Source of the DNA: Escherichia phage vB_EcoM-RPN242
DNA: 64,000 bases
Strand: one strand, 5' to 3'
Sequence record: OL656110.1
Under the pieces are notes generated by a model. That model was not told the origin of the DNA. It searched no databases and saw only the letters and a list, made by a program, of their open reading frames with translations. The translations under genes were made by a program, and so were the position numbers. This document shows positions 1 to 59,680 of this stretch, piece after piece. Each line of letters starts with the position of its first letter. The stretch's first letter is position 1.

Positions 1-165
1 TGACTTGGTAAATAGGCGGACAACCCCGTCCCATTTAGAAAAGGGGTTGGGAACGAAGTTCGGGTCTTCGAATTTGAAGTAGTCATTAAGTTCTTCCCTG
101 ATAGAAAGATCTGCGATGCAACGCATGCGGACTTCGTTAACCTTAACAATCTGAATGTCTGCCAT
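1..165 (-). CDS. hypothetical late protein, N-terminal 55 codons only (gene continues beyond window start)
   Basis: ATG at 165-163 preceded by GGGAG and a CTAAATACCCC late-promoter motif; open frame MADIQIVKVNEVRMRCIADLSIREELNDYFKFEDPNFVPNPFSKWDGVVRLFTKS runs to position 1 with no stop. Absent from ORF track because truncated. Confidence 0.45.
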   Translation of the reverse strand, partial: MADIQIVKVNEVRMRCIADLSIREELNDYFKFEDPNFVPNPFSKWDGVVRLFTKS

Positions 166-186
166 ACAAAATCTCCCAAGGATTAT

Positions 187-197
187 GGGGTATTTAG
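187..197 (-). promoter_or_regulatory. T4-type late promoter motif CTAAATACCCC
   Basis: Minus-strand CTAAATACCCC; the TAA stop of ORF 194..940 lies inside the motif; followed by GGGAG and ATG at 165. Confidence 0.55.
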
Positions 198-940
198 TGA
201 TCCGGCCAGACTCCGTTTTGTTCTTTATCCATGCGATGATACAGACGAACACGCTCAAACATCTTTGTCAGAATGTCATCACGGTTGAACTCAATGACGG
301 TTGGTAGAGGGGAAGACTCGTTGGCGATCACGTTGATGAGGCGGGTGATCTTGACGCCGAACATCTGCTGGAACATGACCGAATATAAGCACAGCTGGAT
401 ACTGTAATCCTCGATCATGCCCCGCGTCTTCATGGTGTTCGATGTCTTGAAGTCGATGACAGCAGGTTTACCCTCATAAACCCCGATAAGGTCTACACGA
501 CCTGCAAGACCAAGCACCTCACTATATAATGGGATCTCCTGAGCATAGATCTTTGTCATCTTGTTCAGGTAAGGGAACAGCTGCTTGAACATGAACATGT
601 ATTCGCCAGCCGCTTCCAACACTTCTTTCATTGGGCGGTTCTTTAGATACAGTTCACACGCAAGGTGCAGCTTCTCCCCTCGGTCAGCACAGCGCATGGT
701 CTCAAGATCAGCGGCCTCTGCGCCCAGCTTCTTCCTCCAAGACTCAAGCCATTCATGATCTCCAGTGCGTCCCAGCATAGTCGTGACGGATGTCAGTTTT
801 ACACCAGACGGTGAAACGTAATGACGACCATTCTCCGTCGTAACACACTCCAGTTCCTTATGAGGAAGTTCGTATTGCTGGAATGTGTAATGACGGTTTT
901 CGAAGTCATTCAGCTTGCGTAGATCCTGGAGAGATGCCAT
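194..940 (-). CDS. hypothetical protein, 248 aa (weak PD-(D/E)xK-like D...E.K signature)
   Basis: ATG start with GAGGA upstream; segment GRVDLIGVYEGKPAVIDFKTS resembles a nuclease core but is unverified. Confidence 0.55.
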   Translation of the reverse strand: MASLQDLRKLNDFENRHYTFQQYELPHKELECVTTENGRHYVSPSGVKLTSVTTMLGRTGDHEWLESWRKKLGAEAADLETMRCADRGEKLHLACELYLKNRPMKEVLEAAGEYMFMFKQLFPYLNKMTKIYAQEIPLYSEVLGLAGRVDLIGVYEGKPAVIDFKTSNTMKTRGMIEDYSIQLCLYSVMFQQMFGVKITRLINVIANESSPLPTVIEFNRDDILTKMFERVRLYHRMDKEQNGVWPDH

Positions 941-2630: not shown

Positions 2631-3359
2631 TTACTTCAGCGCGTTCTTCAGATTATCGGAACCAATGCTGTTGATGACACCTCCGGCGCAGATATCTTTC
2701 GCCCACTCTGAGATCACGTTGGCAAAAGAGAAGTTAAGACACTTACCAACCATGTCTTGGATATGGGCTAACTCTGCTGCAATACCGTTCGTGATGTCCT
2801 GAGCAATAGAGGCTACTGATGCGACAGCAGTGTCGATGGCCTGAGTAACTTCAGCAGCCAGTGCCTGAATAGCATCAAGACCAGCACCGACGCCCTGAGC
2901 TACCAACTCAGCCAGCTCATTCATCTTGTTTGTGATAGTTGTGAGAACACTTTGCATGGTGTTGATCCACTGTTTGCCGAGGTTCTGAATAACCCCAAAT
3001 GCATTATTGATCAGATCACAGTTGTTCGGTTCTCGACCTATAGACTTCAGGGCGGACTTATACGACACAGATGTACCGATGCGGGAATATGCCTCGTTCA
3101 CTGACTGGTCGCCATAGTTGTTCAAAGTAGTGATGCTGTTGTTGGCTGAGTTGAACATTGCTGTAGATTCGTTGAGTTTGGCTGTAGTCAACCCACCTGC
3201 CGTCAGCGCTTCCTGAATCTGCGCATTTCCGGTGTTAGCCAGTGACGCTGTAGTCGCCTTACCACTGGTGATTAACCCCTGTGAGGCGCTGCTGAGGGAC
3301 GGGAGAGGATTGGTAAAGGCGTTGCCCTGTGATAGGGCGTCATAGATCTGTGCGTTCAT
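2631..3359 (-). CDS. late protein, Ala/Ser/Thr-rich, likely virion-associated, 242 aa
   Basis: Track start 3401 lies upstream of the late promoter; re-called to ATG at 3359 which follows GGGGGTATTTTCTT. Confidence 0.6.
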   Translation of the reverse strand: MNAQIYDALSQGNAFTNPLPSLSSASQGLITSGKATTASLANTGNAQIQEALTAGGLTTAKLNESTAMFNSANNSITTLNNYGDQSVNEAYSRIGTSVSYKSALKSIGREPNNCDLINNAFGVIQNLGKQWINTMQSVLTTITNKMNELAELVAQGVGAGLDAIQALAAEVTQAIDTAVASVASIAQDITNGIAAELAHIQDMVGKCLNFSFANVISEWAKDICAGGVINSIGSDNLKNALK

Positions 3360-3383
3360 AAGAAAATACCCCCATGGATGATG

Positions 3384-3394
3384 GGGGTATTTAG
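3384..3394 (-). promoter_or_regulatory. late promoter motif CTAAATACCCCC with inverted copy at the ribosome-binding site
   Basis: Minus strand reads CTAAATACCCCCATCATCCATGGGGGTATTTTCTT-ATG; 11-12 bp inverted repeat AATACCCCCAT / ATGGGGGTATT. Confidence 0.6.
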
Positions 3395-8804: not shown

Positions 8805-9656
8805 TTAGCCGTTGATGCCGAAGCGACGATTATAGTCGGCCAACTGACGCTTGATAGATTCTTTCAGCTCTTTGTCTGTTTCATCTTCATCGTCATCTTC
8901 ATCGCCTTCTTTCTTAGGCTTTTTGCCTTCGGCTTTAACATCTTTGTTGTCGTCATCGCCGTCTTTACCGCCGACTTTGTCCTGGAAGTCATCGTCATCG
9001 TCATCGCCTTCTTTCTTCACGGACTTACCTTCTACCAGGTTGCGGAAGGTGTGTACGCGGGAAGCGAATTCGCTTTCGGTGGTGAACTGCACAGCTTCCA
9101 GCAGATTGACAACCGTTGCTTTCTTGGTGTCGACCATACCTTCACAGATACGGGCGATCACAGAGTCACGCAGAGTCGCATTCGCGGCTTCTTTGATTTG
9201 ACGGTTTTCGCTTTCGGCAATCGCAGCACGTCGTTCTGCTTCGGTCAGGCGGGCAGTCAGCGCAGCGATCTGGCCGTTTTCGTCGGTGGCAAAGTTGATA
9301 CCAGCTTCTTTCAGAACACCAGTCAGGCCAGTCAGCAGATTTTCAGCCGCTTCACGTTTGATCTGAGCATCGATTCCAGGAGCGTTCTTGTTAGCCCACT
9401 CTTCTACAACAGCATTCAGGAAGCCATCGACTTTGGTCGCGATTTCCATCAAGTGAGACTCTTTCAGCTGAGCAATCTCAGCCTGATGAGCTTCAACCAG
9501 ACGCAGGCGCTCAATGTTGGCAGCGTTTTCGGTTTCTTGAATAGCGTTCAGGCGAGCGGCTTCTACTTTAGATTCCAGCAGACCAGACACTTTATCCAGG
9601 AAGTCGGTGCTGAGGCCGTTAACGCCCTCAAACAGTTTTTGCAATTCAGGTTTCAT
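8805..9656 (-). CDS. prohead scaffold protein (gp22-like)
   Basis: 283 aa, coiled-coil-like with a poly-acidic tract (DDDDDDFQDK...EGDEDDDEDE); positioned between protease and capsid. Confidence 0.7.
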   Translation of the reverse strand: MKPELQKLFEGVNGLSTDFLDKVSGLLESKVEAARLNAIQETENAANIERLRLVEAHQAEIAQLKESHLMEIATKVDGFLNAVVEEWANKNAPGIDAQIKREAAENLLTGLTGVLKEAGINFATDENGQIAALTARLTEAERRAAIAESENRQIKEAANATLRDSVIARICEGMVDTKKATVVNLLEAVQFTTESEFASRVHTFRNLVEGKSVKKEGDDDDDDFQDKVGGKDGDDDNKDVKAEGKKPKKEGDEDDDEDETDKELKESIKRQLADYNRRFGING

Positions 9657-9680
9657 GATTGTTTCCTTCTGAACGATTTT

Positions 9681-9690
9681 CAGTATTTAG
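9681..9690 (-). promoter_or_regulatory. late promoter motif CTAAATACTG upstream of scaffold gene
   Basis: CTAAATA about 25 nt upstream of ATG 9656; AAGGAAA ribosome-binding site. Confidence 0.45.
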
Positions 9691-15909: not shown

Positions 15910-15947
15910 AATCTTATTCCTTCTCTGTAGAGTTTCGCTCAATTTGA

Positions 15948-15958
15948 AAGATATTTAG
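15948..15958 (-). promoter_or_regulatory. late promoter variant CTAAATATCTT
   Basis: Between terminase stop (15962) and sheath ATG (15909); GAGAAGG ribosome-binding site. Confidence 0.5.
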
Positions 15959-19554: not shown

Positions 19555-20205
19555 TTATTCTCCAAAGTCGATCTTCATATTGTCTGTTGCAAGCCCCTTC
19601 TCAAGATCATCTGCTAAAGCATTGTCGGTCTGCAGAGAAGAATCCTTGTACACGTCCGGTTCGTTCTCTTCGTCCAAGATGGACAGACGTTTGTCGATAT
19701 CGTCGATCTCCGGAACGCCCGTATCGAAGTTTTCGTTGCCGTACTGGAACAACGTGCACGGCAGAGAGAACGTATACCATTTGCCAAATTGCATGAAGTC
19801 TTCATCGTTGTTCGGGTTGTTGACCTTGAAGATCTTGTTCGCCAGTGGTAGATAGATCAGGTCACCTTCCTGAGGTTGTTGTTCAAACCCAACACCGTTG
19901 CCTATCACCTCGGCAAATCGGCGGCGCGAGATAGAGAACGTCACTTCGTCTTGCAATTGGATACCCCCAAACTTCTCCCACATCTGGGTGTTGAAGCCCT
20001 GATAATCCTGCATGTACGCTTCGATGTCGAACGCCTGGTCGAATCTGTGGTTAGCGTCGTTGGTGATAGGAAATTTTTCAACGATGGAACGGGGTATATA
20101 CTTGATGTCTATCCCGCGCAACTCAATCATTTCCTGTACCAAATCTTCAATCAGCTTCTGTGTGCCTTGGTGATTGGTGGCGTTGAAATATTTAGAAGTG
20201 GCCAT
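19555..20205 (-). CDS. neck protein (gp14 position)
   Basis: 216 aa; synteny only; late promoter upstream. Confidence 0.45.
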   Translation of the reverse strand: MATSKYFNATNHQGTQKLIEDLVQEMIELRGIDIKYIPRSIVEKFPITNDANHRFDQAFDIEAYMQDYQGFNTQMWEKFGGIQLQDEVTFSISRRRFAEVIGNGVGFEQQPQEGDLIYLPLANKIFKVNNPNNDEDFMQFGKWYTFSLPCTLFQYGNENFDTGVPEIDDIDKRLSILDEENEPDVYKDSSLQTDNALADDLEKGLATDNMKIDFGE

Positions 20206-20224
20206 ATCAATACCCTCAATTTTG

Positions 20225-20235
20225 AAGGTATTTAG
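20225..20235 (-). promoter_or_regulatory. late promoter CTAAATACCTT with inverted repeat to ribosome-binding site
   Basis: CTAAATACCTTCAAAATTGAGGGTATTGAT-ATG on the minus strand. Confidence 0.5.
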
Positions 20236-20264: not shown

Positions 20265-20477
20265 ATGCAAGTGGAAGACATCAAAGAAGTTCGCAGCGGT
20301 CGTCGCGTCCGAATCATCTGTGTGGACGCCAAGATTGGAGGTGGTGATTACGACATCGTCGGTCTGGTGAAAGAAGTAGATGGCACAGACTTCATTGAAT
20401 GGTGGAACTCCAAAGACAAGACAGAAGACGGTCTGCTGCGTGGTAGTGGCAACGGAAACCTGGATTTGAAAATCTAA
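20265..20477 (+). CDS. small hypothetical protein, 70 aa, opposite strand inside the late operon
   Basis: ATG with GAGGAA upstream; followed immediately by a strong hairpin and T-run. Confidence 0.5.
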   Translation: MQVEDIKEVRSGRRVRIICVDAKIGGGDYDIVGLVKEVDGTDFIEWWNSKDKTEDGLLRGSGNGNLDLKI

Positions 20478-20478
20478 A

Positions 20479-20507
20479 AGAAGGGCGGGAACCCGCCCTT
20501 CTTTTAC
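20479..20507. terminator. bidirectional terminator hairpin AAGGGCGGGAACCCGCCCTT
   Basis: Lies between convergent gene ends (plus 20477, minus 20504); T-run on the plus side. Confidence 0.65.
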
Positions 20508-29688: not shown

Positions 29689-29699
29689 TTATAATAAAA

Positions 29700-32108
29700 T
29701 TAAGGGCTAACCCGATACCACCCGTCGTAGCTAATATACAAACGTTTACCGGACACAACTGCATCAATGCGAAGCGTTTTTTCACCTTCAGTAAAGAACG
29801 CTCCTCCAGTGTTCCCGATGTTCATTCGAAAGCTGGCTGGAATATTTCCAGAGGTAAAACCGATGTCCCCGTTGTTCACCCCTGTTACTGCTATGTATGC
29901 GTAATCCCGCGCGACAGGAAATCCTGTCACAGATATGAACTGACTGGTGCCGGAACTCCATTCAATTGTCACATCAAACACACCGAATATATGAGCAAAA
30001 TCTCCGACATAATTTATGTTATGTACGGTATACTCGCCGTATGATATCACCGCATTGGTGCCTGATTGAACTGTAATTTCAGGCGAACCGGGGTCATTCG
30101 CTAAGAAAGTACGGTCTGGTCTGATTTTGGCGGATGAATTCGCCACCGTTCTGGTAACGTTGTTGAGCCAACCGGCCTCCACCGGATCCCCATTTCGCGT
30201 AGACCTTACAATGTTGTTACGCAATATTGCGTTAAAAAACGTAATATCGGAGATGTAAATATTATGGTGCTGCCCGGCTACGGCCCCGCCAAACAACATC
30301 CCATTAGAGTTGTACTCATAAGATACGTTGTTCTCAATGATGCTGTTGCGCGCCACTCCATTTAATTCTAGCCATGATATGTTAGACGGGCCTGTGTAAT
30401 CAGAACCAAGTCTAATACTGGTGTTATTGGTGAATGAGCTATGGTCGAAATTATCCAATCTCCAGTTAATACCCAGAGTGCCTTCTTGACCATTCCCAGT
30501 TACCGTTACCCCTAGCAGGTTCTGTAATATATAGCCATAACACACTCTTGTCCTGTCCGGATAATAGTCGTTCCTGTTAGTGTGATCACAGGCATTAGCC
30601 TCTATAACAGAGTATTTAAGATCCCGATAGCAATGCCCATAATCACGGCAACTATTACTATAGTTAGTAGATATTACGCATGAAGTGCCGTTGTTTATAA
30701 ATATCCCACCGAGACATGCGGTAACGCGGTTGTTTCCTACTCGCGACGCAAATACAACAGGGAGAATTAGCCCATACTTGCAATCGTAAATATAGACGTC
30801 TTCTATCGTGGCGTCGGATACCACGCCTGCATTTACGATACCAAATTCTACCGCGTGGTTTTCCGTTGTAGTTTTTGTCCCATGCAGAGTAACCCCTGTG
30901 ATGACACCGGACCATCTTGAACTACTAGAATCCCCTAAACAAATAACCGCATTCATATCTGTAGGCAGGGTTCCGGTATATCCTCCAGATAGTGCAGGCG
31001 CCGTCACCAGAACTGTAACGGTAGTGGATGTCGTTTTCGTTATAGTAACTGATTCGCGACTTCTCCCTATTACTGATACATTCGATGGTAGAGCAAGAGT
31101 ACTGCTTATTTTATAGTTACCATCCGGGAAATAAACCACGCCTTTTGTGGTGCTGGCATAAGCTATAGCTGCTTTTATAGCTACCGTATCATCAGTAGCT
31201 CCGTCACCAACAGCACCAAAATCTTTAACGTTATAGTAGTCTTTAAAATGGCTATCAATGGTTCGCTTAATTGCAGAAGAAACACCAGATAAGCCAGAAT
31301 TTACTAATGTTCCCCCATCAGTAACCATAGCCGTTTTATATACCTGCAACTCATTCTCCACTGGAGTTACATCATTGGGTGCAGGGAGCAGGTCAACAAC
31401 AATCCCACCAGGATTGTATGTTAGTTGGTCACCATTAACGGAAGAAATATATACGTTAGTAGGCAATGTAGGCAACCCATATGCCTTCTGCTCACTAACA
31501 GAATAAATAATCTTCTTACCATTGAGGGACTGAGTAGTATCGGTGCTAAGAATTACTTCACTATCTTTAACGTTAGTAGCACGAGCGATTTCTTGAATAC
31601 TTCGGTCAAACAACGGACTGATATTCGGTTGTTTAACAGACATTTCAGCGACTACCCAAACGCCTGCTGTCAGCGCAGTTTGTAAAGACACTTTCCCTGT
31701 CGTGCTGTCATAGGAATATTCAATTTCGGGTGTTTTGTACTCACCACCGATATAAAGAGATTGGACTCCATAAGATGTGTAATCAGGAGTGAACTCGGTT
31801 TCACCTCCTATAGCCTGAAACTTATAGATTCGAATCCCAGTTTTATAATCTTCTGGAGACAGAATCTTATCAAACAGACAGAACACAACGTCACCTTTGG
31901 ATAATGCGCGTCCGAGATTTAACGTATTTCCATCGATTTCAAAGTTGTCTAACGGAACTTGCATACCACCGTTGATTGTGACTATACCAGTGACAGGGTA
32001 GAAAGGGAGGGAGATAAACTTCTCTCCGCCCGTTGCTGTGTAAGTGTATGGAATCTGGTGCGGAGCTGTTACGACCGCTCCAAAGATGCTCTCGACGTTT
32101 CTGGTCAT
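29700..32108 (-). CDS. tailspike protein (about 802 aa)
   Basis: ATG at 32108 follows GGGGTATTTTCAA; shares the module IARATNVKDSEVIL...KKIIYSVSEQKAYGLP with the others. Confidence 0.7.
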   Translation of the reverse strand: MTRNVESIFGAVVTAPHQIPYTYTATGGEKFISLPFYPVTGIVTINGGMQVPLDNFEIDGNTLNLGRALSKGDVVFCLFDKILSPEDYKTGIRIYKFQAIGGETEFTPDYTSYGVQSLYIGGEYKTPEIEYSYDSTTGKVSLQTALTAGVWVVAEMSVKQPNISPLFDRSIQEIARATNVKDSEVILSTDTTQSLNGKKIIYSVSEQKAYGLPTLPTNVYISSVNGDQLTYNPGGIVVDLLPAPNDVTPVENELQVYKTAMVTDGGTLVNSGLSGVSSAIKRTIDSHFKDYYNVKDFGAVGDGATDDTVAIKAAIAYASTTKGVVYFPDGNYKISSTLALPSNVSVIGRSRESVTITKTTSTTVTVLVTAPALSGGYTGTLPTDMNAVICLGDSSSSRWSGVITGVTLHGTKTTTENHAVEFGIVNAGVVSDATIEDVYIYDCKYGLILPVVFASRVGNNRVTACLGGIFINNGTSCVISTNYSNSCRDYGHCYRDLKYSVIEANACDHTNRNDYYPDRTRVCYGYILQNLLGVTVTGNGQEGTLGINWRLDNFDHSSFTNNTSIRLGSDYTGPSNISWLELNGVARNSIIENNVSYEYNSNGMLFGGAVAGQHHNIYISDITFFNAILRNNIVRSTRNGDPVEAGWLNNVTRTVANSSAKIRPDRTFLANDPGSPEITVQSGTNAVISYGEYTVHNINYVGDFAHIFGVFDVTIEWSSGTSQFISVTGFPVARDYAYIAVTGVNNGDIGFTSGNIPASFRMNIGNTGGAFFTEGEKTLRIDAVVSGKRLYISYDGWYRVSP

Positions 32109-32140
32109 TTGAAAATACCCCATAAAGGATTTGCCAATAT

Positions 32141-32151
32141 GGGGTATTTAG
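32141..32151 (-). promoter_or_regulatory. late promoter CTAAATACCCC with inverted repeat
   Basis: CTAAATACCCCATATTGGCAAATCCTTTATGGGGTATTTTCAA-ATG; 12-bp arms. Confidence 0.6.
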
Positions 32152-32185
32152 TCTGAACTAATAAATTTATAAACAAATGTATAGA

Positions 32186-32220
32186 GAAACCCCGCCGAAG
32201 CGGGGCTAGTTTTTATTTGT
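32186..32220. terminator. hairpin CCCCGCCGAAGCGGGG with T-run on the plus side
   Basis: Same hairpin core as at 7347 and 34851; located just past the end of 32227..34776. Confidence 0.55.
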
Positions 32221-32226: not shown

Positions 32227-34776
32227 TCAATTGAGTTTTGATATCTCTACAGTTATACCGAATACGTTATTCGGTCTACTTGTGGTTGTAGCTATAGTTA
32301 GCTCAAAGAAATGCGCGTTTATATCTGGTGACTGTGTGTATCCCGCAGAATTAGTTAATGTTACATTGAGTGATATGTCCGAATCTGTTACGCCGTTTAT
32401 GCGAATTTCATTCACAGGTCCTGATAGCGACGCGGCGGAAGTTGCACCTATCTTATGATTTACCAGGTACGTCTTCTCAATATAAGCAACGGATCCCCCA
32501 TTATTATATGAAGAGCACGACTTAACTTTTACCAGTAGGTTTTGCGATTCTAATGTTCCATAGTTATCAAAAATCTTTAAAACTTTGTTAGCAGATGCAC
32601 CAGAAATGCTTCCACAGTTCACTTCCCATAATGTAGTTCTATTCGCATTCGGTGCGTTCTCATACATGTAGAAACTACCATCTGGAATTACCCTGTTGTT
32701 TATTAATGTTTTCAGATTTCCGCAGTTACCTATTAGTCTCACGTGGGCATTGATGTTTGTTAATGTTACTGTTTTTATTTTTGATTCTGTGTTTGCGCAC
32801 CTAATAGAACCACCCATGCAGTTAATATTTTCGTAATAGACATTACCAGCTTGCCACGGTAACGCGAAAATATCGTCCGCCCGGTTTTTATAATTGAGCG
32901 CAACATTAGCAGCAATCCAGTCTCGGTGCATAGAAGAATCACCAGTAAATGTGACGATACCTATTTGAGGGTCTTCTGCTGGGGTTGTGCCCAAACTGGC
33001 AACTATATTGATATCTGTCAGCTCACCACCAAGACATCTTATATTTGGCATATCATATTCTTCGGTGGCAAATACGTTACGCCATTTAGCATCAAAACCA
33101 GCGTGCGAGTCCATCGTGGCGAAGTTATTATAACCGAAGCACTTTTTAACCTCGAACTTGTTGAACCATGTTGTTGGGGAGGCAGCATGTCTACAGAATG
33201 ATGCTGTGATGCTATCAACAACTGTATCGTAAGTGCCCGCCGCAGGGCTGATAGGATACTGACACCTATTAGCAACTACATTGCCAATCCTTGGCATATA
33301 GCAAGCTATTAATAAGTACGAGGAACCACCACTGGTTTCCACGTCACCAGAAAAGACTGGCATATAAAAACCACGGAACCATGAAGATGAAACCCCAAAT
33401 GATGCGGTGCCTATATTAACAAAAGATGAGTTATCACGGTTGTTAAAGTGCTCCATCTTGAAGTTATTGAAAATCAACCTTACCGGTTTGTACCTGTTAA
33501 CCTTAACGTTGTTTGCTACTAGATGATCGAATAGCGCTGGCCTATCAACTTTCATATTAGAACCAGATTCACGCTCTGCAATAAACAACTCCCTTGAGTT
33601 AAAATTCCACTGAGTCTCGTACGTCTTGTTGTCCTCTATATAAATCAAATCACCCTCTACAGCCCCAGCCACCCGCGCAACTGTGGAGCCGCTTACCATA
33701 TCAGCTAGAAGTGAAGACTGAATCTCGGTTGATGACAGGTGCATTTCCACCCCATCAGAGGCCCCGAACAGCTTTATGCCAGACCAATCAACAACTAAGT
33801 TTTTATCAATCGACAATAGTTCTATATTACTGGTTACAGTAACCTCACCGACTGACCTGAAGTATCCACGGCACCCGGATGTGTAAGCTACAGTCAGGAA
33901 TTCAGATATAGTCTGGCCTGATACAGACCCTCCAGCGGTTATGCCGAAATCATCTCCGCAAATCGCGCTTATAGGGGTAAATGATGTTAATGCCGGCTGG
34001 GAAGCAGACCTGACCCACATTGTACCGCCGGTTGAGCATACCGAATCTACAGGTAACTCTGCCTCCGTGGACGCAATCATCTCGTAAAAAGAGGAGAAAT
34101 GTTTGTATATTCCAGCAACTTTGTAACCACCAGTTATAGGATTAGTCCCAGCGACAACTATACCAGCAGGACCGGAGAACGCCTTACCAGTGCGTTCTTG
34201 TAGTAGCACATCGTTGGCGTTCACTAGTGTACCGCCCGACTCAAAGCTACCATCTACTAGATTATAGCCTGCTGTTGCATAGCTACGGCGCAACGCCTCA
34301 CGGGTCTGTGTACTTGTGAACTGATTGGAGCACCTAATATAACCACTCCCTGGAAGAGTAGGGTCTGTGCCAGCAGGAACTACTTTAGGTAATGCCCCAT
34401 CCCAACGGTACTTCCCATCTGTAAAGACAACTAATTCATTCTTGGTATTAACTGTTACACCGGTATCAAATGACCCAGACAATGTGACGTACTCTTCACG
34501 AGATACAGCCAATTCCCCGAGATCTACAGAACCTGCTGAATGTACCAGGATTGCCTGTTCGTTCAGACTTATCGCAGTCGTTCCTGAAACAATACCTGAA
34601 GGAAGAGAATAAGCCCGTTGGGTAGACTCATCATAAATTACTTTAAATCCACTGAGATCAATACCAGCAGTGAAATAAATGACTTCGTCTTCTTTGACAC
34701 CGAAATTTCGAGCGATAGATTGTTTGTTAACTTCTATGGAAGTGGAGCCGCGTGGTTGATTGAATTGAGAAATCAT
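32227..34776 (-). CDS. tailspike protein (849 aa)
   Basis: Shared N-terminal module; contains a 160-bp segment nearly identical to one in the next gene. Confidence 0.7.
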   Translation of the reverse strand: MISQFNQPRGSTSIEVNKQSIARNFGVKEDEVIYFTAGIDLSGFKVIYDESTQRAYSLPSGIVSGTTAISLNEQAILVHSAGSVDLGELAVSREEYVTLSGSFDTGVTVNTKNELVVFTDGKYRWDGALPKVVPAGTDPTLPGSGYIRCSNQFTSTQTREALRRSYATAGYNLVDGSFESGGTLVNANDVLLQERTGKAFSGPAGIVVAGTNPITGGYKVAGIYKHFSSFYEMIASTEAELPVDSVCSTGGTMWVRSASQPALTSFTPISAICGDDFGITAGGSVSGQTISEFLTVAYTSGCRGYFRSVGEVTVTSNIELLSIDKNLVVDWSGIKLFGASDGVEMHLSSTEIQSSLLADMVSGSTVARVAGAVEGDLIYIEDNKTYETQWNFNSRELFIAERESGSNMKVDRPALFDHLVANNVKVNRYKPVRLIFNNFKMEHFNNRDNSSFVNIGTASFGVSSSWFRGFYMPVFSGDVETSGGSSYLLIACYMPRIGNVVANRCQYPISPAAGTYDTVVDSITASFCRHAASPTTWFNKFEVKKCFGYNNFATMDSHAGFDAKWRNVFATEEYDMPNIRCLGGELTDINIVASLGTTPAEDPQIGIVTFTGDSSMHRDWIAANVALNYKNRADDIFALPWQAGNVYYENINCMGGSIRCANTESKIKTVTLTNINAHVRLIGNCGNLKTLINNRVIPDGSFYMYENAPNANRTTLWEVNCGSISGASANKVLKIFDNYGTLESQNLLVKVKSCSSYNNGGSVAYIEKTYLVNHKIGATSAASLSGPVNEIRINGVTDSDISLNVTLTNSAGYTQSPDINAHFFELTIATTTSRPNNVFGITVEISKLN

Positions 34777-34802
34777 GATAATACCCCAAGAATGACCAAT
34801 AT

Positions 34803-34813
34803 GGGGTATTTAG
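34803..34813 (-). promoter_or_regulatory. late promoter CTAAATACCCC with inverted repeat
   Basis: CTAAATACCCCATATTGGTCATTCTTGGGGTATTATC-ATG. Confidence 0.6.
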
Positions 34814-34848: not shown

Positions 34849-34872
34849 AGAACCCCGCCGAAGCGGGGTTTA
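34849..34872. terminator. hairpin CCCCGCCGAAGCGGGG
   Basis: Third copy of this hairpin core; just past gene end 34876. Confidence 0.55.
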
Positions 34873-37800: not shown

Positions 37801-38037
37801 ACCACCGCCACCCAGCGGCAACCATCCACCATTTTCATAGAAGCCCTCAAATTCGTCGGAGTCGGCATTGTAGCGAACGGAAGACGGGAGTCCTGCGCTG
37901 GCATTACCCTCGGGTAAAGTCAGGACAGCATCTGGTCCATGCTCAATCGTACCCGTGTTGAGGAGACCAGCCAAAGTAGACTGCTCTTCAGCCGCCAGAC
38001 CGAGAGGGAAAACAGGCTGTGTTGGTTTATTAGCCAT
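34876..38037 (-). CDS. long tailspike protein (about 1053 aa) with extended N-terminal domain
   Basis: ATG 38037 follows GGGGTATTTGAA; internal copy of the shared module (VARVTNVKDTEVVYF...YKVIYDKETQRAYPLP...VDLGELAVSREEYVTLSGSFDTGVTVNTKNELVVFTDGKYRWDG). Confidence 0.7.
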   Translation of the reverse strand: MANKPTQPVFPLGLAAEEQSTLAGLLNTGTIEHGPDAVLTLPEGNASAGLPSSVRYNADSDEFEGFYENGGWLPLGGGGIRWEVLPHASTATLTEGRGYLINNTTGASTVVLPSPTRIGDSVTICDAYGKFATYPLTVSPSGNNLYGSTEDMAITTDNVSATFTWSGPEQGWIITSGVGLGQGRVYSREIFTKILASETSSVALNTPPTIVDVYADGKRLAESKYSLDGNVITFSPSLPASTELQVIEYTPIQLGNVGGSGSSTITWVYNGGSAIGGETEITLDVVVDDVPAIDINGSRQYKNLGFTFDPSTSKITLAQELEPEDEVVVIINGTPNIYNQIDYTLREVARVTNVKDTEVVYFSVGAALSGYKVIYDKETQRAYPLPADIAPGTTAVSLSPSAVLVHSAGSVDLGELAVSREEYVTLSGSFDTGVTVNTKNELVVFTDGKYRWDGELPKEVSAGSTPGSAGGTGAGKWLSVGDVSLRSDLADDDGVDLVNGAVKDKDFELYKRQSIAKNRFNFAFGNKYSRSFNNNLRLQLQTYVENVFNFAPKAVSLPSGRVVCIYTVKDGANIDPGQDGTPMHIDYLISDDNGVNWTTGTVVNKGPGYATSETVLFLNNLDGYLYCFFTSMKGITGWGHAQQGTNPDTTSTIEYVISKDGGNTWSTPVDITPLVKPSGAYFSSIAPTQVGYINGKPAIPYYYLTQLSTGIVEGYITVDDSGNYTYGEDVRKDTDTDTLGTSGGEIGFGNFYDGTPFAIERAADTTTKPYKIAIQKLLMQDSSGKWVVKGQFPTTNCMASFLRVGPDYGFDKDYLFVIAPVGQSGNYEGRANIRVFDCSDDFSNPIDRGMITDTNALEAGYSSTVLLSSGSFMSMWNGRQWTISNSIYTINRLAGNVIIPVPFCGTIKIVDIRKTFAPDLRINERVIGLADGKEYTWNGSSFVLGISSPTKTLTTETTTLDANSCDVFYLDAGSNGSVITSITGGYIGQRISILPLSGNTVVTLSKQASGVSVTDRIMYNTETGKTKYKTNGEIVELIKTNYGWYLNKSANAS

Positions 38038-38070
38038 TTCAAATACCCCTAAATGTGTTCGTTTCATCTA

Positions 38071-38081
38071 GGGGTATTTAG
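38071..38081 (-). promoter_or_regulatory. late promoter CTAAATACCCC with inverted repeat
   Basis: CTAAATACCCCTAGATGAAACGAACACATTTAGGGGTATTTGAA-ATG. Confidence 0.6.
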
Positions 38082-40137: not shown

Positions 40138-41899
40138 AACGCACCTCCGGCTCCACAGTTACAGCACCGATGCGGAGCACCTGATTCTGTGTGGCCTGAA
40201 TGTTCTGGTCAAGACCGTCTGGAGACACAATTATTGTCACACCCTCAGTGTTGTAGTTGGATACTATGATACGCTGGAGTTCAACAACGCCAGTCACATA
40301 ATCAACCGTCCCAACAGCTTGTACCAGATATTCCTTGGTCGTGTCTGTTGTACTCACCTTGTACATATTCAGGACACCACTGACGTCGCGTATGTAGTAA
40401 GTGAATTCGACCTCGGCCGGAAGCGGCTTAAACCCACTGATACGCACAGAACCAGACGCAATCGAGCGCCCAAACTCGAATGTGAAGCTGTCCAGTACCC
40501 CATAGTCTGGCTTGAAATGGCGCTTATACTTCACAGAAGTGATGTTTGACACTATCGATCTGTCTATGTCGGTGATGGCCGACTGTAACTGCTCTTTATC
40601 GAACAGTTCGTCGAATCCTTCTAGGTTCCCCAAGCCCCAGTTGACAACACCGTTCTTCACGACTGTCTTCAACTGCTCTTCGGTATAGGACGTGGAAGTC
40701 GGATCCCAGAACACGCGGGTGGTGACATCAACATAAGTCAGTTCAGCGTCGACAATCTTGGGTGTGATCGTGCCCACATTGTACTTGTCTAACGTCGCCA
40801 CGATATCTGCCTTCTCAGCGTCCGAGAGCGCCTCACCAACAGAAGGTATCACAGCAATGTAAACGTATCCGGAGTCGGGCGGAGAGAGCGTGTCGCCGCC
40901 ATATGCTTTGGCGCGGGAGACGTTGGAGAACAGACGCTCGGTCAACATAGCATAATCGACTTCGGCTACCGCCGCACCCTCAGCCTGATAAGCCAGCGGA
41001 GCAAGGCGCTTGATGTCCTCAATGCTCTCTGGGTCCGCACCGCCGGAAGAACGTTCTGACACCAGCTCAACATCTACAAGGTTGAATCCCCCGATGGAAG
41101 ACGCGGAGGACAAGGCAGTGATGTCATTGCCGTCTGCACCAGCTGTCTCCAGATACTGGAGGTACACGACGTTCCCGTCTTCTACTCGCTTACAGATATA
41201 CCCATCACCGAATTCGAACGTGTACATCCCGTCCAACCCCAGCTCAACGAAGTAGAGTTGCGCATACTGGCTCAAATCGAACGGGCTGACATATCGTGAA
41301 AAGGTAGACAGCACGTCAGATGTCTCAGATTCCTGCACCTGCACCACCATATGGTCGATGTCCACGGAAGAAGATGGGATCACATAGGTGGAGATCGCGC
41401 TACCTTCCACATCATAGGACTTGTACAGCCAGTTACCCTGTATGAGTTTGATGTTCTCGAACTTGTAAGAGCCGTCTACAAGAGAGGCGCTCACAGGTTG
41501 GTCAACCGTGAAGTTATAGGATTTGCCATCCTTCACCCCAATGAACATCGCGCGGCGATCCATTACAATCGTGTCTGGAGCCGTGCTGGCGTCATATGGA
41601 GTGACTGTGACGTTTGCGTACAGGTACGCGGCCTGGTAGTTGTGAGGGGTGTAAGATAAGAACCCCGCCGCCAGACCGACATTAGAACGCTGTTGAGCAG
41701 AGTGAAGATGGCTTTCGCCATTCAGCATGTTCTGCATGAACCCGATAGAGTTGGCATCCGAGGCCAAGATACGCACGATTGCACTGAGACCAGAACCTTC
41801 AAAGTCATAATCCTTGAAAGTTGGATCAGCTTTCATGCGCTTCTTGATAAGATACTCGAAAGCCCTGACATCGAGTGAAGGGACTGTTTGCGTGGCCAT
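40121..41899 (-). CDS. baseplate wedge protein (gp6-like)
   Basis: About 592 aa from ATG 41899 (track start 41950 is TTG); first gene of the late module. Confidence 0.55.
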   Translation of the reverse strand: MATQTVPSLDVRAFEYLIKKRMKADPTFKDYDFEGSGLSAIVRILASDANSIGFMQNMLNGESHLHSAQQRSNVGLAAGFLSYTPHNYQAAYLYANVTVTPYDASTAPDTIVMDRRAMFIGVKDGKSYNFTVDQPVSASLVDGSYKFENIKLIQGNWLYKSYDVEGSAISTYVIPSSSVDIDHMVVQVQESETSDVLSTFSRYVSPFDLSQYAQLYFVELGLDGMYTFEFGDGYICKRVEDGNVVYLQYLETAGADGNDITALSSASSIGGFNLVDVELVSERSSGGADPESIEDIKRLAPLAYQAEGAAVAEVDYAMLTERLFSNVSRAKAYGGDTLSPPDSGYVYIAVIPSVGEALSDAEKADIVATLDKYNVGTITPKIVDAELTYVDVTTRVFWDPTSTSYTEEQLKTVVKNGVVNWGLGNLEGFDELFDKEQLQSAITDIDRSIVSNITSVKYKRHFKPDYGVLDSFTFEFGRSIASGSVRISGFKPLPAEVEFTYYIRDVSGVLNMYKVSTTDTTKEYLVQAVGTVDYVTGVVELQRIIVSNYNTEGVTIIVSPDGLDQNIQATQNQVLRIGAVTVEPEVRYVQRS

Positions 41900-41935
41900 G
41901 ATAATCTCCATCACCTGAGTTTGAATATGGTGTTG

Positions 41936-41946
41936 AAGATATTTAG
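41936..41946 (-). promoter_or_regulatory. late promoter variant CTAAATATCTTC
   Basis: About 40 nt upstream of ATG 41899. Confidence 0.5.
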
Positions 41947-47670: not shown

Positions 47671-47681
47671 CTAAATACCCC
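47671..47681 (+). promoter_or_regulatory. late promoter CTAAATACCCC with inverted repeat, plus strand
   Basis: CTAAATACCCCATGCAAACCAGTGTGGGGTATTT-ATG. Confidence 0.6.
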
Positions 47682-47704
47682 ATGCAAACCAGTGTGGGGT
47701 ATTT

Positions 47705-48169
47705 ATGAAAACCTTTCTTGAATATCTTAAAGAGGCGTCTGAGGCTGAACCCAAGTTCGATAACATGCGCCTCTTTCACGGCTCCAACGTAGGATTCGAT
47801 GTCTTCGACTTTGAGCGCTTCGGTCAGACTGACTGTGGTACGATGGGACCTGGGTTCTATCTGACAGGCAACGAAGAAGAGGCACAGCGCTATGCAGAGA
47901 ACGCCGTCCGCTACCGCCAGAGTGGTGAACCCCATGTTCTGGTGTTTAACGTCAGTGTTAAGAAGCCCCTCGAACTCGACTCTAACAATGTCTCGGCCTG
48001 GGAAGACGCTATGCGTGAACTTGGTATCGAACCGGGTAAGATCCATGAGAACGCCGCCGAGCTAATTGCTCAGGGCTATGACTCCACCATCGTGCTGGAC
48101 CGCTTTGGGTTGCCTATGGTGCGTGAGATCGTCCTGTACAAACCAGGCCTGGCAGTGCGGGAAGCCTAA
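47705..48169 (+). CDS. late-expressed hypothetical protein, 154 aa, with an HGS motif
   Basis: RLFHGSN...GFYLTGN suggests a nucleotide-modifying fold but is unverified; driven by a late promoter. Confidence 0.55.
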   Translation: MKTFLEYLKEASEAEPKFDNMRLFHGSNVGFDVFDFERFGQTDCGTMGPGFYLTGNEEEAQRYAENAVRYRQSGEPHVLVFNVSVKKPLELDSNNVSAWEDAMRELGIEPGKIHENAAELIAQGYDSTIVLDRFGLPMVREIVLYKPGLAVREA

Positions 48170-48177
48170 ATACCCCC
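48166..48177 (+). promoter_or_regulatory. late promoter CTAAATACCCCC
   Basis: The TAA stop of the upstream gene is embedded in the motif; GAGGAA then ATG at 48206. Confidence 0.55.
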
Positions 48178-48205
48178 ATATGGCTAACCCACTGAGGAAC
48201 CTAAC

Positions 48206-48664
48206 ATGCCAACCTCCAAATTGTTTGAATCAGAATACACCAATGACATCCCTGTATGGACTGGTGTTCAAGACGGTATCACGATTGAGCTGTTTGATCG
48301 TGAAGAGACAGGCGCGGAAGAGATCTATGCAGGCGTTGAAGGCACTGATGTTGTCCGCGCCGCCGTAGCACTTGCCACCTTCCTGGAAGATGCACCGATT
48401 GATGGTGTGCCGTTCGAGGCGCACGTAGATCCTCAGGATCCGACCTCTATCATCATTACAGTGAATGGGGTGCCATACACTTCATACAGCATCGAGACGG
48501 ACGAAGAAGGCAGTGGAGCGCTGTATATTGCCACCGACCTGCAGCTGGAAGACGATGAGATGGATTATCTGATTCAGAACGGGGTGCTGCCACCGTTTAC
48601 CGATGAAGAACTGGACACGGAACTGGCCGCCGTCGGGGACGACGAAGACTTCTGGGAAGAATAA
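48206..48664 (+). CDS. highly acidic late protein, 152 aa
   Basis: Asp/Glu-rich throughout (EEGSGALYIATDLQLEDDEMDYL...DEELDTELAAVGDDEDFWEE). Confidence 0.55.
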   Translation: MPTSKLFESEYTNDIPVWTGVQDGITIELFDREETGAEEIYAGVEGTDVVRAAVALATFLEDAPIDGVPFEAHVDPQDPTSIIITVNGVPYTSYSIETDEEGSGALYIATDLQLEDDEMDYLIQNGVLPPFTDEELDTELAAVGDDEDFWEE

Positions 48665-52016: not shown

Positions 52017-53199
52017 TAAGTTAGCAGCATAGGGGCTTTGGTTGGCGACAACCATCGAATAACTCTCTTAATTGCTGGGAAGTCTCTTTAGAGATAATCA
52101 GCAGCCAAGGTCGGCCACGAAGACCTAAATACTCTGTAACCACGGTGAAGGAGTAAGGTCATGAAGGAAATCAAGAGTCTGTTCTATCGAAATGATTTGG
52201 TAATTGAAGAATCTAAGATAGAAGAATATTTGAAGTTCTGTAAGGAACACAGTTATGATGGTGATGGATACAGTGAACGCCATCATATACTGCCTCAGGC
52301 GCATTATCCTGAGTTCTCTAAAGAAGAATGGAACATTGTAAACCTGTTATATAAAGATCATGTAGAGGCTCATCGCCTGTTGCATGAAGCATTACCAGAA
52401 GATAAATCAGCGTTCTTCGCCTACTTCATGATGAAATCCCATAACGGGGAACTAAGTGAGGAATTGAGAAGAAAGAATGTTGAAATGCTGACGGGAGAGG
52501 GAAATCCTTCGAAGAGGGAAGATGTCAGAAGAAAGATATCCAAATCTAAGAAGGGTGTTAGAAGAGCAGATATGAAGGGTAAGGCTTATTTCGGCGCTGA
52601 TAAAGAAACAGCTGAAAGAATTAAAGCCAATTCCAGTCTTGTTCACAAAGGCACTGTCCCCGTAAGACTCCTGGATGGTAGTGTTATCAAAGTTTCAACG
52701 CAAGACCCGAGATATTTGAGTGGTGAGTTGAAATGTATAATAGGTGCAAAGAAAGGTCAGGTGGGACCAAACACCGACCCAAAAGCGAAGAAGAAATTTA
52801 AAGATTCTTTAGAGAAAAGGAAGGAAATGTTTGCCAGAATGAGTGGGGAAGAAATAACCACTCATTGCTTGACACAACAGGATTTAGGTAAGAAGACTGT
52901 AGAGTGGGGCAAGTTGGCAAGAAACTTCAAACGACTCTTTGGTTACGCTGGGTTAAACCCAGATGATTTCCTTGAAGTAGTGGGTGACAAGGTTCAACGA
53001 CTATCGAAAGCAAGACCGACGACTAAGCGTCTGATCTGAAGCGAGTAGAGTAGGGGCAAGCGCCTCGAAATGGAGAGAATCTCTAGACAGTTCTGGAGAT
53101 TGTGATATAGTCTGGCCTGTATGGTGACATACAGCAGTGTTCGGTAAACTGAATGACGAACACGGGGGATGAAATAGCGAGCATCCCTGAACATAAGCG
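52017..53199 (+). mobile_element. group I intron carrying an HNH homing endonuclease gene
   Basis: R-like element GTTCAACGACTA at 52992-53003 and S-like GATATAGTC at 53104-53112; 5' exon ends in U, intron ends in G; splicing gives DLNSL|YPHIIQQYNLGPETI. Confidence 0.7.
52161..53039 (+). CDS. HNH homing endonuclease (intron-encoded)
   Basis: ERHHILPQ...NIVNLLYKDHVEAHRLLHE is an HNH motif; GGAG upstream; 3' end overlaps the intron core. Confidence 0.8.
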   Translation: MKEIKSLFYRNDLVIEESKIEEYLKFCKEHSYDGDGYSERHHILPQAHYPEFSKEEWNIVNLLYKDHVEAHRLLHEALPEDKSAFFAYFMMKSHNGELSEELRRKNVEMLTGEGNPSKREDVRRKISKSKKGVRRADMKGKAYFGADKETAERIKANSSLVHKGTVPVRLLDGSVIKVSTQDPRYLSGELKCIIGAKKGQVGPNTDPKAKKKFKDSLEKRKEMFARMSGEEITTHCLTQQDLGKKTVEWGKLARNFKRLFGYAGLNPDDFLEVVGDKVQRLSKARPTTKRLI

Positions 53200-59644: not shown

Positions 59645-59680
59645 TATAAATATCCTCGCCTATAAAGTGAGGATATTATC

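Follow-up and report, generated by a model that had tools for sequence, protein, structure and literature searches.

At least seven late genes of Escherichia phage vB_EcoM-RPN242 have a late promoter complementary to the gene's own ribosome-binding site

Introduction

Late promoters of the gp55 type consist of the sequence xTAAATA and carry no -35 element. In 1986, McPheeters et al. reportedly found that the late promoters of T4 gene e lie within the 5' strand of a leader hairpin that sequesters the ribosome-binding site (RBS). This leader hairpin with its embedded late promoters has been reviewed (PMC3014915), and regulation by an RBS-sequestering hairpin is documented for T4 genes 49 (endonuclease VII), e, I-TevI and segB, with further hairpins of this kind on soc, I-TevII and I-TevIII (PMC3014915, PMC2988022). 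The late promoter of the Aeromonas phage Aeh1 is CTAAATA, and in both T4-type and Aeh1 late promoters the motif begins at -12 (PMC1524935). According to two reviews that cite the work of Gibb and Edgell (2007, 2009), the Aeh1 gene mobE has an RBS-sequestering hairpin that is relieved in late transcripts (PMC3014915, PMC2988022).

In this study, we analyzed a window of 64,000 nucleotides from Escherichia phage vB_EcoM-RPN242 (OL656110.1), an Agtrevirus-like, and thus Vi1-like, genome of the Ackermannviridae. In this window, at least seven late genes have a late promoter that is complementary to the RBS of the same gene. A consensus of CTAAATAcCcc is said to have been given by Adriaenssens in 2012. 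Late promoters were searched for by Anany (2011) with TATAAATA, one mismatch being allowed, and the late promoter of ViI was not identified by Kutter (2011). In the literature we searched, the Ackermannviridae late promoter was reported as unidentified or was only putatively annotated; searches on the motif, start sites and transcriptomes of the family returned nothing on hairpins, and no transcript 5'-end, read-through or translation data were found for any Ackermannviridae phage. An Rfam scan of the window at the gathering threshold returned two tRNAs only.

Results

Late promoters and hairpin sites in the window

The motif CTAAATA occurs 15 times in the window, compared with 4.9 occurrences expected, and none of 100 shuffles reached 15; a preliminary description of this DNA had proposed such a count against shuffled controls, and its outcome favored the motif. 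Thirteen of the 15 copies immediately precede genes in the same orientation, the majority of which are structural. Among orthologues, TAAATA is invariant, while the first base may be C, T, A or G. Homologues of gp55, gp33 and gp45 are annotated in the relatives LIMEstone1 and CBA120, all of them outside the region corresponding to the window. These observations support the view that CTAAATA behaves as a gp55-type late promoter.

The hairpins and the features used for comparison are collected in Table 1. All six sites named in the preliminary description are present where it had placed them, and the gene starts it had assigned to them hold, with PHROG profiles aligning from residue 1. To its "at least six" late genes we add a seventh strong site, at 59645-59683 on the plus strand. 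Its arm length of 8-12 bp is borne out at five sites, which have perfect arms of 9-12 bp, but not at 20235, where only 6 bp are perfect (10 with one G·U); the gap between arm and ATG, given as 3-5 nt, measures 0-4 nt instead. The two genes described as having their TAA stop inside the next late promoter do so: the stop of the exonuclease ORF 194..940 on the minus strand (196-194) lies within CTAAATA 197-191, the order exonuclease then UvsW being that of LIMEstone1, and the stop of ORF 47705..48169 on the plus strand (48167-48169) lies within CTAAATA 48166-48172.

Three of the sites in Table 1, namely the seventh strong one and the two weak ones at 52125 (plus strand) and 197 (minus strand), were absent from the earlier list of hairpins. 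At 52125, CTAAATActc pairs with GGAGTA over 5-6 bp, and the duplex is no better than those with other TIRs; LIMEstone1 annotates its orthologue as a late promoter plus I-LimII. At 197, CTAAATAcccca…tgggagatttt is interrupted by a 2x2 internal mismatch. Once G·U pairs are counted, the stems of sites 38081 and 47671 also exceed the lengths first stated, reaching 16 and 14 pairs, respectively.

Table 1. Late promoter hairpins, late promoters lacking an inverted copy, and terminators in the window (energies in kcal/mol; opening cost as read-through RNA vs late transcript)
Site	Feature	Span	Strand	Motif	5' arm	3' arm	ATG	Longest perfect arms (bp)	Own duplex	Opening cost	Remarks
3394	Hairpin, DUF7217 virion protein gene (2631-3359)	3357..3394	-	CTAAATA 3394-3388	3392-3381 (AAATACCCCCAT)	3375-3364 (ATGGGGGTATTT)	3359-3357	12	-18.8	20.4 vs 8.0	Loop 3380-3376
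20235	Hairpin, neck protein gp14-like gene (19555-20205)	20203..20235	-		20232-20223 (AATACCTTCA)	20218-20209 (TGAGGGTATT, one U·G)	20205-20203	6 (10 with one G·U)	-13.7	14.0 vs 9.8	Profile match to head closure Hc2
32151	Hairpin, tail spike gene (29700-32108)	32106..32151	-		32149-32138 (AAATACCCCATA)	32124-32113 (TATGGGGTATTT)	32108-32106	12	-17.0	16.7 vs 5.7	Orthologue: CBA120 124081
34813	Hairpin, tail spike gene (32227-34776)	34774..34813	-		34810-34802 (AATACCCCA)	34788-34780 (TGGGGTATT)	34776-34774	9	-14.2	11.8 vs 6.6	Orthologue: CBA120 126074
38081	Hairpin, large tail spike gene (34876-38037)	38035..38081	-		38079-38069	38051-38041	38037-38035	11	-19.7	21.3 vs 9.2	Hairpin -21.0; orthologues: LIMEstone1 123298, CBA120 129288
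47671	Hairpin, virion protein gene with ART-PolyVal domain (47705-48169; Pfam)	47671..47707	+		47672-47682 (TAAATACCCCA)	47695-47705 (TGGGGTATTTA), into A of ATG	47705	11	-20.8	21.1 vs 9.0	Orthologues found
59645/59646	Seventh strong hairpin, TATAAATAtcctc…gaggatatt; gene (59681-59848) for a 55-aa single-TM protein	59645..59683	+	TATAAATA 59645-59652	59649-59657 (AATATCCTC)	59669-59677 (GAGGATATT, canonical SD)	59681		-15.9	22.4 vs 4.2	Orthologues: LIMEstone1 147904, CBA120 152405
52125	Weak hairpin, 292-aa ORF splitting the DNA polymerase gene (52161-53039)	52125..52163	+						-7.1		
197	Weak hairpin, uvsW-like gene (runs off window)	163..197	-				165		-6.9		
48166	Late promoter CTAAATAccccc, no inverted copy	48166..48208	+				48206		-2.8	7.1 vs 4.1	SD GAGGAA
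	Late promoter, no inverted copy, scaffold/prohead gene	9654..9690	-				9656		-4.8	4.4 vs 2.0	
	Late promoter, no inverted copy, tail sheath gene	15940..15958	-	15958-15952			~49 nt downstream		-6.1		
	Late promoter, no inverted copy, gp6-like baseplate gene	41897..41946	-						-7.0		Divergent intergenic region
	Canonical intrinsic terminator (AACCCCGCTTCGGCGGGGTT + T-rich tail)	34851..34870	-								Between two tail spike genes; ~40 nt upstream of 34813 promoter
	Canonical intrinsic terminator (CCCCGCTTCGGCGGGG)	32190..32205	-								~40 nt upstream of 32151 promoter
	GC-rich stem-loop + T run (AAGAAGGGCGGGTTCCCGCCCTTCTTTT)	20475..20503	-								Directly after gp13-like gene, upstream of 20235 promoter; found by reading the sequence, not called by a simple terminator scan

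Comparison with T4 and Aeh1

As a positive control, the same scan was applied to T4 and recovered genes 49, e, I-TevI and segB. The layout of T4 gene e, TATAAATAccttc…ggaggtatt-ATG, has the same architecture as both CTAAATAcccc…ggggtattt-ATG in the window and the Ackermannviridae endolysin leader, TTAAATAccttcgca…tgcggaggtattt-tctt-ATG; in each, the promoter lies in the 5' arm and the Shine-Dalgarno (SD) sequence in the 3' arm, with an upstream ORF ending beside the promoter. However, the motif mostly starts with C (otherwise with T, A or G) and is followed by CCCC, the stems are stronger (-12 to -21 vs -11 to -14 kcal/mol), and each hairpin holds one promoter, whereas that of T4 e holds two. 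For the group of T4 gene 49 and I-TevI, the Ackermannviridae counterparts are a RuvC-like resolvase and, at the weak 52125 site, the ORF that splits the DNA polymerase gene, although the RuvC-like protein and EndoVII are not homologous. Unlike in T4, the device in the window is also carried by the genes of three tail spikes, one neck protein and two virion proteins, and the same scan gave approximately 8-10 sites per 155-kb Ackermannviridae genome, compared with 4 in the 150 kb of T4. By the account of those two reviews, Aeh1 mobE shares the C-initial CTAAATA at -12 and the RBS-sequestering hairpin, but there the hairpin is on a single homing-endonuclease gene in a phage of another family, the Straboviridae.

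Pairing between promoter and ribosome-binding site

The pattern TAAATACC-N{4,30}-GGTATT matched 7 times in the window (6 sites, one of them a palindromic double hit), compared with 0.01 matches expected from shuffles. Perfect arms of at least 9 bp were present at 5 of the 15 CTAAATA sites, for which random window positions gave a null probability of 0.005. The duplex between promoter and own RBS ranged from -13.7 to -20.8 kcal/mol at the seven strong sites and from -0.9 to -7.1 kcal/mol at ten other candidate late promoters. Because the random-position null for duplex energy is loose, with 4-7% of positions reaching -13 kcal/mol or lower, we relied on the perfect-arm null, the pattern shuffles and a permutation test. 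In the latter, each promoter paired best with its own translation start, and none of 20,000 permutations reached the observed energy sum. The arm sequences differ from site to site (CCCCCAT, CCCCATA, CCCCTA, CCTTCA, TCCTC), each having a partner arm that matches it.

The 3' arm holds a usable SD (GGGGU, GAGGG or GAGGA), which is as good as that of other late genes; GGGGU pairs with the anti-SD no less well than theirs do. At all sites and in all orthologues, the stem ends at -2 to +4 nt from the AUG, with the SD segment inside the 3' arm. At the other end, the 5' arms begin 1-3 nt inside the 7-mer and extend to a point 11-16 nt from the first base of that 7-mer. With the spacing of T4 and Aeh1, which puts +1 at 12 nt from the motif's first base, this geometry supports a late transcript that would start after the 5' arm. 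When the late transcript was modeled as an RNA starting at that position, the predicted cost of opening the -15..+4 region was 18.2 kcal/mol in read-through RNA and 7.5 kcal/mol in the late transcript; at late genes lacking a hairpin, the corresponding values were 9.8 and 6.7 kcal/mol (Mann-Whitney p=0.003). From these opening energies, the long transcripts are predicted to be translated much less than the late ones. We also looked for a rule for which late promoters carry a hairpin, considering the presence of an upstream gene and the absence of a terminator, and no clean rule emerged.

Conservation of the hairpins

The hairpins are kept in Agtrevirus, Limestonevirus, Kuttervirus and Miltonvirus. 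Across orthologues the loops vary from 4 to 17 nt, and the distance from stem to AUG is fixed. In the RuvC hairpin, two pairs differ on both sides, with A-U replaced by G-C and by U-A, and there is a paired G/C insertion; the endolysin hairpin shows switches from U·G to C-G and from G-C to G·U, with 77 of 78 cells paired; and the KNP4 orthologue of the 3394 hairpin keeps 13 pairs with changed bases. This conservation with compensatory and wobble changes argues that the structure is selected as RNA. The sense strand was predicted to fold more stably than the antisense strand in a supportive manner in 23 of 28 hairpins; this asymmetry is absent in the RuvC and 3394 families, and we regard it as weak evidence.

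In the relatives, the hairpin is carried by the genes of the endolysin and of the RuvC-like (Holliday-junction) resolvase, which correspond in function to T4 genes e and 49. In unrelated viral contigs, it was found on an e-type lysozyme, a RusA-like resolvase, a homing endonuclease and a holin; all of these are classes that are regulated by such hairpins in T4.

Transcription from upstream

The promoters at 47671 and 59646 are preceded, on the same strand, by genes for DNA-modification enzymes: a PLP-enzyme gene stopping at 47664 and an amino-acid:DNA transferase gene stopping at 59644. Only 1-7 nt separate these genes from the promoter, and no terminator intervenes. Read-through across the hairpin is plausible at these two sites as well as at 197 and 52125, where enzyme genes likewise adjoin the promoter and a terminator is absent. 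At 20235, 32151 and 34813, which have terminators upstream, it is doubtful, and the genes upstream of 3394 and 38081 are themselves late. Because of these terminators and late genes, little early read-through would be expected at these five sites, and the rationale of early read-through from T4 fails to explain them.

Discussion

Several alternative explanations of the hairpins were weighed. That they are mainly intrinsic terminators or insulators, with an embedded promoter restarting transcription and an incidental overlap with the RBS, seems unlikely to us. The GenBank record of phage Matapan does label a 3394-type hairpin 'terminator', with an RBS annotated inside its 3' arm, other records place terminator features at the DUF7217 gene, and LIMEstone1 has such features beside two of the sites. 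The 3394 hairpin, with its 8-bp GC-rich core, 5-nt loop and U-rich tail (UAUUUUCUU), is also the nearest to terminator form; however, the loops at 4 of the 7 sites are 12-17 nt long, whereas the clear terminators of this phage have loops of 4-5 nt, GC stems of 8-9 bp and uninterrupted T runs. The tail of the hairpins reads UAUUU, as dictated by complementarity to AAAUA. Three sites are already preceded by a canonical terminator, and a scan of 29000-48999 called canonical terminators but none of the three tail-spike hairpins. A terminator would also have no need for a 3' arm whose end stays within 0-4 nt of the AUG across all sites and genera, or for an arm that covaries with the type of SD (GGGG, GAGGA or GGAGG). 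Identity as intrinsic terminators, tried as a candidate, was largely rejected, as the combination of GC stem, 3-8 nt loop and immediate U run was not found. A role mainly in protecting the 3' ends of upstream mRNAs or in processing, with no part in downstream translation, is highly improbable. The hairpins do sit at cistron boundaries, and stable stem-loops at cistron ends can block 3' exonucleases, but RNase III requires stems longer than the 9-16 bp seen here, and such a role would leave unexplained why the stems are anchored to the AUG, include the SD and recur on lysis, resolvase and endonuclease genes.

Translational coupling, in which a ribosome ending on the upstream ORF of a polycistronic RNA melts the 5' arm and thereby enables downstream translation, so that the output of the downstream gene would follow upstream translation instead of being blocked, draws on the upstream stops that lie 1-8 nt from the promoter, or inside it, at 3394, 38081, 47671, 59646, 197 and 48166. 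Such distances are probably within reach of the footprint of a terminating ribosome. We nevertheless consider coupling quite improbable, since T4 gene e has the same geometry (upstream ORF end 67035, promoter start 67030) and its long transcripts are approximately 100-fold less translated (PMC3014915), and since coupling is inapplicable at 20235, 32151 and 34813, whose promoters are separated from the end of the closest upstream ORF by 40-270 nt and a terminator. There is very little to recommend an action of the inverted repeat as DNA, either as a palindromic protein site or as a cruciform modulating use of the late promoter. The repeat does include the promoter, and the opposite strand at 47671 also reads ATAAATAcccc, but the spacing of the arms, which ranges over 4-17 nt among sites and orthologues, does not fit a dimeric binding site; in addition, almost every non-Watson-Crick stem position is a sense-strand G·U, a pair that forms only in RNA, and the arm is anchored to the AUG rather than to the promoter. 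A DNA palindrome or protein-binding site was rejected on the variable spacing and the sense-strand G·U. The inverted copy as an antisense or second promoter was likewise rejected, because it lacks the T of xTAAATA in 4 of 5 CCCC-type sites, and only 47671 keeps xTAAATA on the other strand.

The reading we prefer, to which we assign a probability of roughly 0.75, is that the hairpins in the window are T4-type late-promoter hairpins that sequester the RBS. In this model, the 5' arm of each RNA hairpin would consist of the gp55-type late promoter core (xTAAATA) and the next 4-8 nt, and the 3' arm of the gene's own SD and spacer, stopping 0-4 nt short of the AUG. A transcript coming from upstream would fold, because it holds both arms, and its ribosome site would be hidden. 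A transcript from the hairpin's own promoter would start approximately 12 nt past the motif's first base, immediately beyond the 3' edge of the 5' arm, and could not form the hairpin and would be translated. Because the late transcript lacks the 5' arm and the read-through RNA is folded, the protein would be made essentially only from late, promoter-proximal mRNA. The in silico support covers the anatomy, the non-random occurrence, the matching of promoter to RBS, the conservation with compensatory changes and the energy gap between the two transcript forms; we infer where transcription starts, that read-through transcripts exist and how translation is affected. The preliminary description had read the layout as the RBS lock of the T4 lysozyme gene used repeatedly, which agrees with every in silico test that was run, and on this computational basis the hairpins would be new members of that known mechanism.

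Discrimination between early and late transcripts is not the whole story, because several sites come after late genes or canonical terminators. At the late-late junctions, before the three tail-spike genes, the neck gene and the DUF7217 gene, we tentatively suggest that the hairpins may make each cistron translatable only from the mRNA of its own promoter, forming a portable, insulated cassette that would fix tail-spike output despite read-through and travel with exchanged tail-spike modules. Under the same tentative proposal, phages that use gp55 may also apply the device as a rule to their lysins, homing endonucleases and junction resolvases, whether EndoVII, RuvC-like or RusA-like.

Vi1-like phages are widely used in the biocontrol of Salmonella, E. 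coli, Klebsiella and Dickeya and in tail-spike engineering. Expression would be expected to change if a tail spike gene were swapped without its 45-nt promoter and hairpin leader, or if a payload were placed upstream. For database annotation, at least one such hairpin labeled as a terminator can be corrected, and in-frame ATGs within the 3' arm give gene starts that are too long. The findings provide a testable model of how Vi1-like phages may time and insulate their lysis, DNA-cutting, tail-spike and packaged-enzyme genes. The same lock is shared by functionally equivalent, non-homologous genes of T4, the Ackermannviridae and uncultured phages, which points to a common need to keep lysins, resolvases and endonucleases untranslated until late.

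Late promoters paired with an inverted copy in the window

Megablast assigned the window (GC content 48%) to the Ackermannviridae, with 98% identity over 20 kb to the Agtrevirus-like Escherichia phages YX22 and AV101 and ~85-90% identity to Shigella, Salmonella and Dickeya relatives. The head, neck, tail and tail-spike genes lie on its minus strand (~1 to 42 kb), and the tRNAs, DNA-modification enzymes, two virion proteins and a split DNA polymerase on the plus strand (~42 to 64 kb). All six hairpins of the preliminary description, in which a late promoter core forms the 5' arm and the gene's own Shine-Dalgarno the 3' arm, were found at their positions, as were the two cases of an upstream TAA stop inside the promoter. 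The CTAAATA motif occurs 15 times, against an expectation of 4.9 ± 2.1, and 13 of these copies immediately precede a gene in the same orientation. The arm length given there, 8-12 bp, applies to five sites, where perfect arms of 9-12 bp start 1-3 nt into the motif (an inverted arm of at least 9 bp has a chance of 0.005 at random positions); site 20235 has only 6 perfect pairs, or 10 with one U·G. The gap between arm and ATG is 0-4 nt rather than 3-5 nt. The pattern TAAATACC-N4-30-GGTATT had 7 matches where 0.01 were expected, and PHROG profiles aligned from residue 1 of the proposed start codons. We also found a seventh strong site, with a 3' arm ending 3 nt short of the start codon of a gene for a 55-aa membrane protein, and two weak versions. 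The promoters of two adjacent tail-spike genes share a near-identical 38 nt (32134-32171 and 34796-34833 on the minus strand; …ataaatttattagttcagaCTAAATAccccatattgg), a sequence likeness that points to duplication or exchange of a promoter/leader cassette.

Hairpin sites and neighbouring features of the window
Feature	Position	Strand	Remark
Hairpin site	3394	-	DUF7217 virion protein
Hairpin site	20235	-	neck gp14-like
Hairpin site	32151	-	tail spike
Hairpin site	34813	-	tail spike
Hairpin site	38081	-	tail spike
Hairpin site	47671	+	ART-PolyVal virion protein
Seventh strong site	59645-59683	+	T4-consensus TATAAATA then TCCTC; pairs with canonical GAGGATATT
Weak hairpin version	197	-	
Weak hairpin version	52125	+	
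tRNA gene	44865-44938	+	Rfam RF00005; 3' of divergent intergenic region at ~42 kb
tRNA gene	45194-45279	+	Rfam RF00005; 3' of the same region
PLP-dependent enzyme	46390-47664	+	weak Pfam match
ART-PolyVal gene	47705-48169	+	Pfam, 40.8 bits (cutoff 31.2)
Family-B DNA polymerase	50599-54781	+	two ORFs, 50599-52032 and 53153-54781
292-aa ORF	52161-53039	+	between the polymerase ORFs
Amino-acid:DNA transferase	58418-59644	+	PF18724, E=4e-60
55-aa protein gene	59681-59848	+	PHROG 3879, function unassigned there
Strong terminator	~59866-59910	+	after the 55-aa gene

Evidence for pairing as the selected feature

Candidate late promoters form two classes by duplex energy with their own translation initiation region: seven reach -13.7 to -20.8 kcal/mol, and the other ten only -0.9 to -7.1 kcal/mol. 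Among the 17 regions tested, the own region was the best partner for 5 of the 7 strong promoters, and none of 20,000 permutations reached the observed total energy. The sequence following TAAATA varies by site (CCCCCAT, CCCCATA, CCCCTA, CCCCA, CCTTCA, TCCTC), and every time the 3' arm matches its 5' arm, also where GGGG gives way to GAGGA. Limestonevirus, Kuttervirus and Miltonvirus retain orthologous hairpins, in which the loop varies in sequence and length while the stem stays within -2 to +4 nt of the AUG. In relatives, the hairpin of a RuvC-like resolvase gene, which lies outside the window, shows A-U to G-C and A-U to U-A changes and a paired G/C insertion. This insertion, found in IMG/VR contigs L137, L138, L140 and L143 as a G in the 5' arm (GTAAATAGCCC) and a C in the 3' arm (GGGCTATTTAC), leaves the stem perfect and alters the sequence just 3' of the promoter core. 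The endolysin hairpin keeps 77 of its 78 cells paired, with U·G replaced by C-G and G-C by G·U.

Late promoter and predicted effect

The motif most likely corresponds, in the Ackermannviridae, to the T4 late promoter, in which a TATA box precedes the start by about one helical turn. Relatives encode gp55, gp33 and gp45, the late promoter reported for the T4-like phage Aeh1 is CTAAATA with its first base at -12 (PMC1524935), and the LIMEstone1 authors annotated putative late promoters at the same positions. With +1 set 12 nt from the first base of the motif, a late transcript would start just 3' of the 5' arm and carry a leader of 18-32 nt. The hairpin is predicted in read-through RNA, which holds both arms, and is absent from the predicted fold of the late transcript. 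The mean cost of opening -15..+4 is 18.2 kcal/mol in read-through RNA versus 7.5 in the late transcript, compared with 9.8 and 6.7 in eight late genes that lack an inverted copy (p=0.003). GGGGU equals the GGAG and AGGA of other late genes in anti-Shine-Dalgarno pairing, at a spacing of 3-7 nt. We infer where transcription starts, that read-through transcripts exist and how translation is affected; the reading in which the hairpin locks the ribosome-binding site until the late promoter fires is supported by every computational test run.

Comparison with T4 and other phages

T4 gene e is the established case of such a hairpin, with others reported for soc, 49, I-TevI/II/III, segB and Aeh1 mobE (PMC3014915, PMC2988022), and our scan, applied unchanged to T4 bases 1-150,000, ranked gene 49, e, I-TevI and segB highest. 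The hairpins described here are thus new members of a known mechanism, not a new one. T4 e has TATAAATAccttc…ggaggtatt-ATG, and the Ackermannviridae endolysin TTAAATAccttcgca…tgcggaggtattt-tctt-ATG. Whole-genome scans of LIMEstone1 and CBA120 gave 8-10 sites each, comprising the seven families of the window together with those on the endolysin and RuvC-like resolvase genes, which correspond in function to T4 e and 49. The Ackermannviridae use the hairpin more frequently than T4, and on structural genes. In LIMEstone1 (L001-L003), a hairpin-bearing gp14 promoter with the first gp14 codons (112806, minus strand) is left over next to an inserted cassette of two genes, and the intact gp14 (112032, minus strand) has another CTAAATA promoter without an inverted copy.

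An IMG/VR pattern scan revealed the same layout, xTAAATACCCC-loop-GGGGTATT-(0-6 nt)-ATG, outside the Ackermannviridae (contigs L186, L191, L216, L219, L224; L204-L210, L229-L231, L239; L253-L255; L245; L258), before genes for a RusA-like resolvase, a gp13-like head-tail adaptor, a T4 e-type lysozyme, a homing endonuclease and a holin-like protein. Of the 90 matches, 27 had an ORF starting with an ATG behind them, versus 4.3% of random positions.

Genes around the hairpins

The 55-aa protein, with a single predicted membrane helix and a coiled, charged tail, is possibly related to lysis; because its gene stands between the TATAAATA/hairpin unit and a strong terminator, it appears to be a tightly late, stand-alone cistron. 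The LIMEstone1 orthologue of the ART-PolyVal (ADP-ribosyltransferase) protein, ORF173, is a virion protein confirmed by mass spectrometry; the product may be a packaged, injected ADP-ribosyltransferase, a candidate analogue of T4 Alt. The 292-aa ORF has no Pfam match, its LIMEstone1 orthologue is named "intron I-LimII", and Rfam at gathering threshold found no group I intron at the split polymerase.

Possible role of the hairpin at individual sites

In T4, the rationale for the hairpin is the silencing of early read-through. This fits 47671, 59646 (the seventh site), 197 and 52125; at the first two, the upstream PLP-dependent enzyme and amino-acid:DNA transferase genes, both for DNA hypermodification, stop 1-7 nt 5' of the promoter. 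It does not fit 20235, 32151, 34813, 38081 and 3394, since canonical terminators lie upstream of 32151, 34813 and 20235 and the upstream genes at 38081 and 3394 are late. At these five sites, the hairpin may insulate its cistron from read-through late mRNA, back up a terminator that leaks or itself take part in termination. The most terminator-like is 3394, and GenBank calls a hairpin of its type in Salmonella phage Matapan (L045; 277-302) a "terminator", in a record that places the downstream RBS at 290-294, within the 3' arm.

A ribosome terminating on the upstream ORF could possibly open the hairpin by translational coupling, but the long transcripts of T4 e, which has this geometry, are reportedly translated poorly (PMC3014915). 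A role of the inverted repeat in DNA is unlikely, because the arm spacing ranges from 4 to 17 nt and the arm is anchored to the AUG. In addition, almost all non-Watson-Crick pairs in the stems are G·U when read on the sense strand, which favours RNA over DNA as the level of action; two hairpin families lack this asymmetry.

The hairpins also bear on annotation. In-frame ATGs at 3401, 32123 and 38067 (minus strand) are located within the 3' arm or 5' of it, which makes the longest ORFs begin too early; PHROG alignments favour the downstream ATGs 3359, 32108 and 38037. The annotated RuvC start of LIMEstone1 is such an ATG inside the hairpin, and terminator features of that phage lie ~30 nt from two hairpins, possibly through a coordinate offset. 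A known mechanism is newly recognised in the Ackermannviridae, with practical consequences for annotation and tail-spike engineering.
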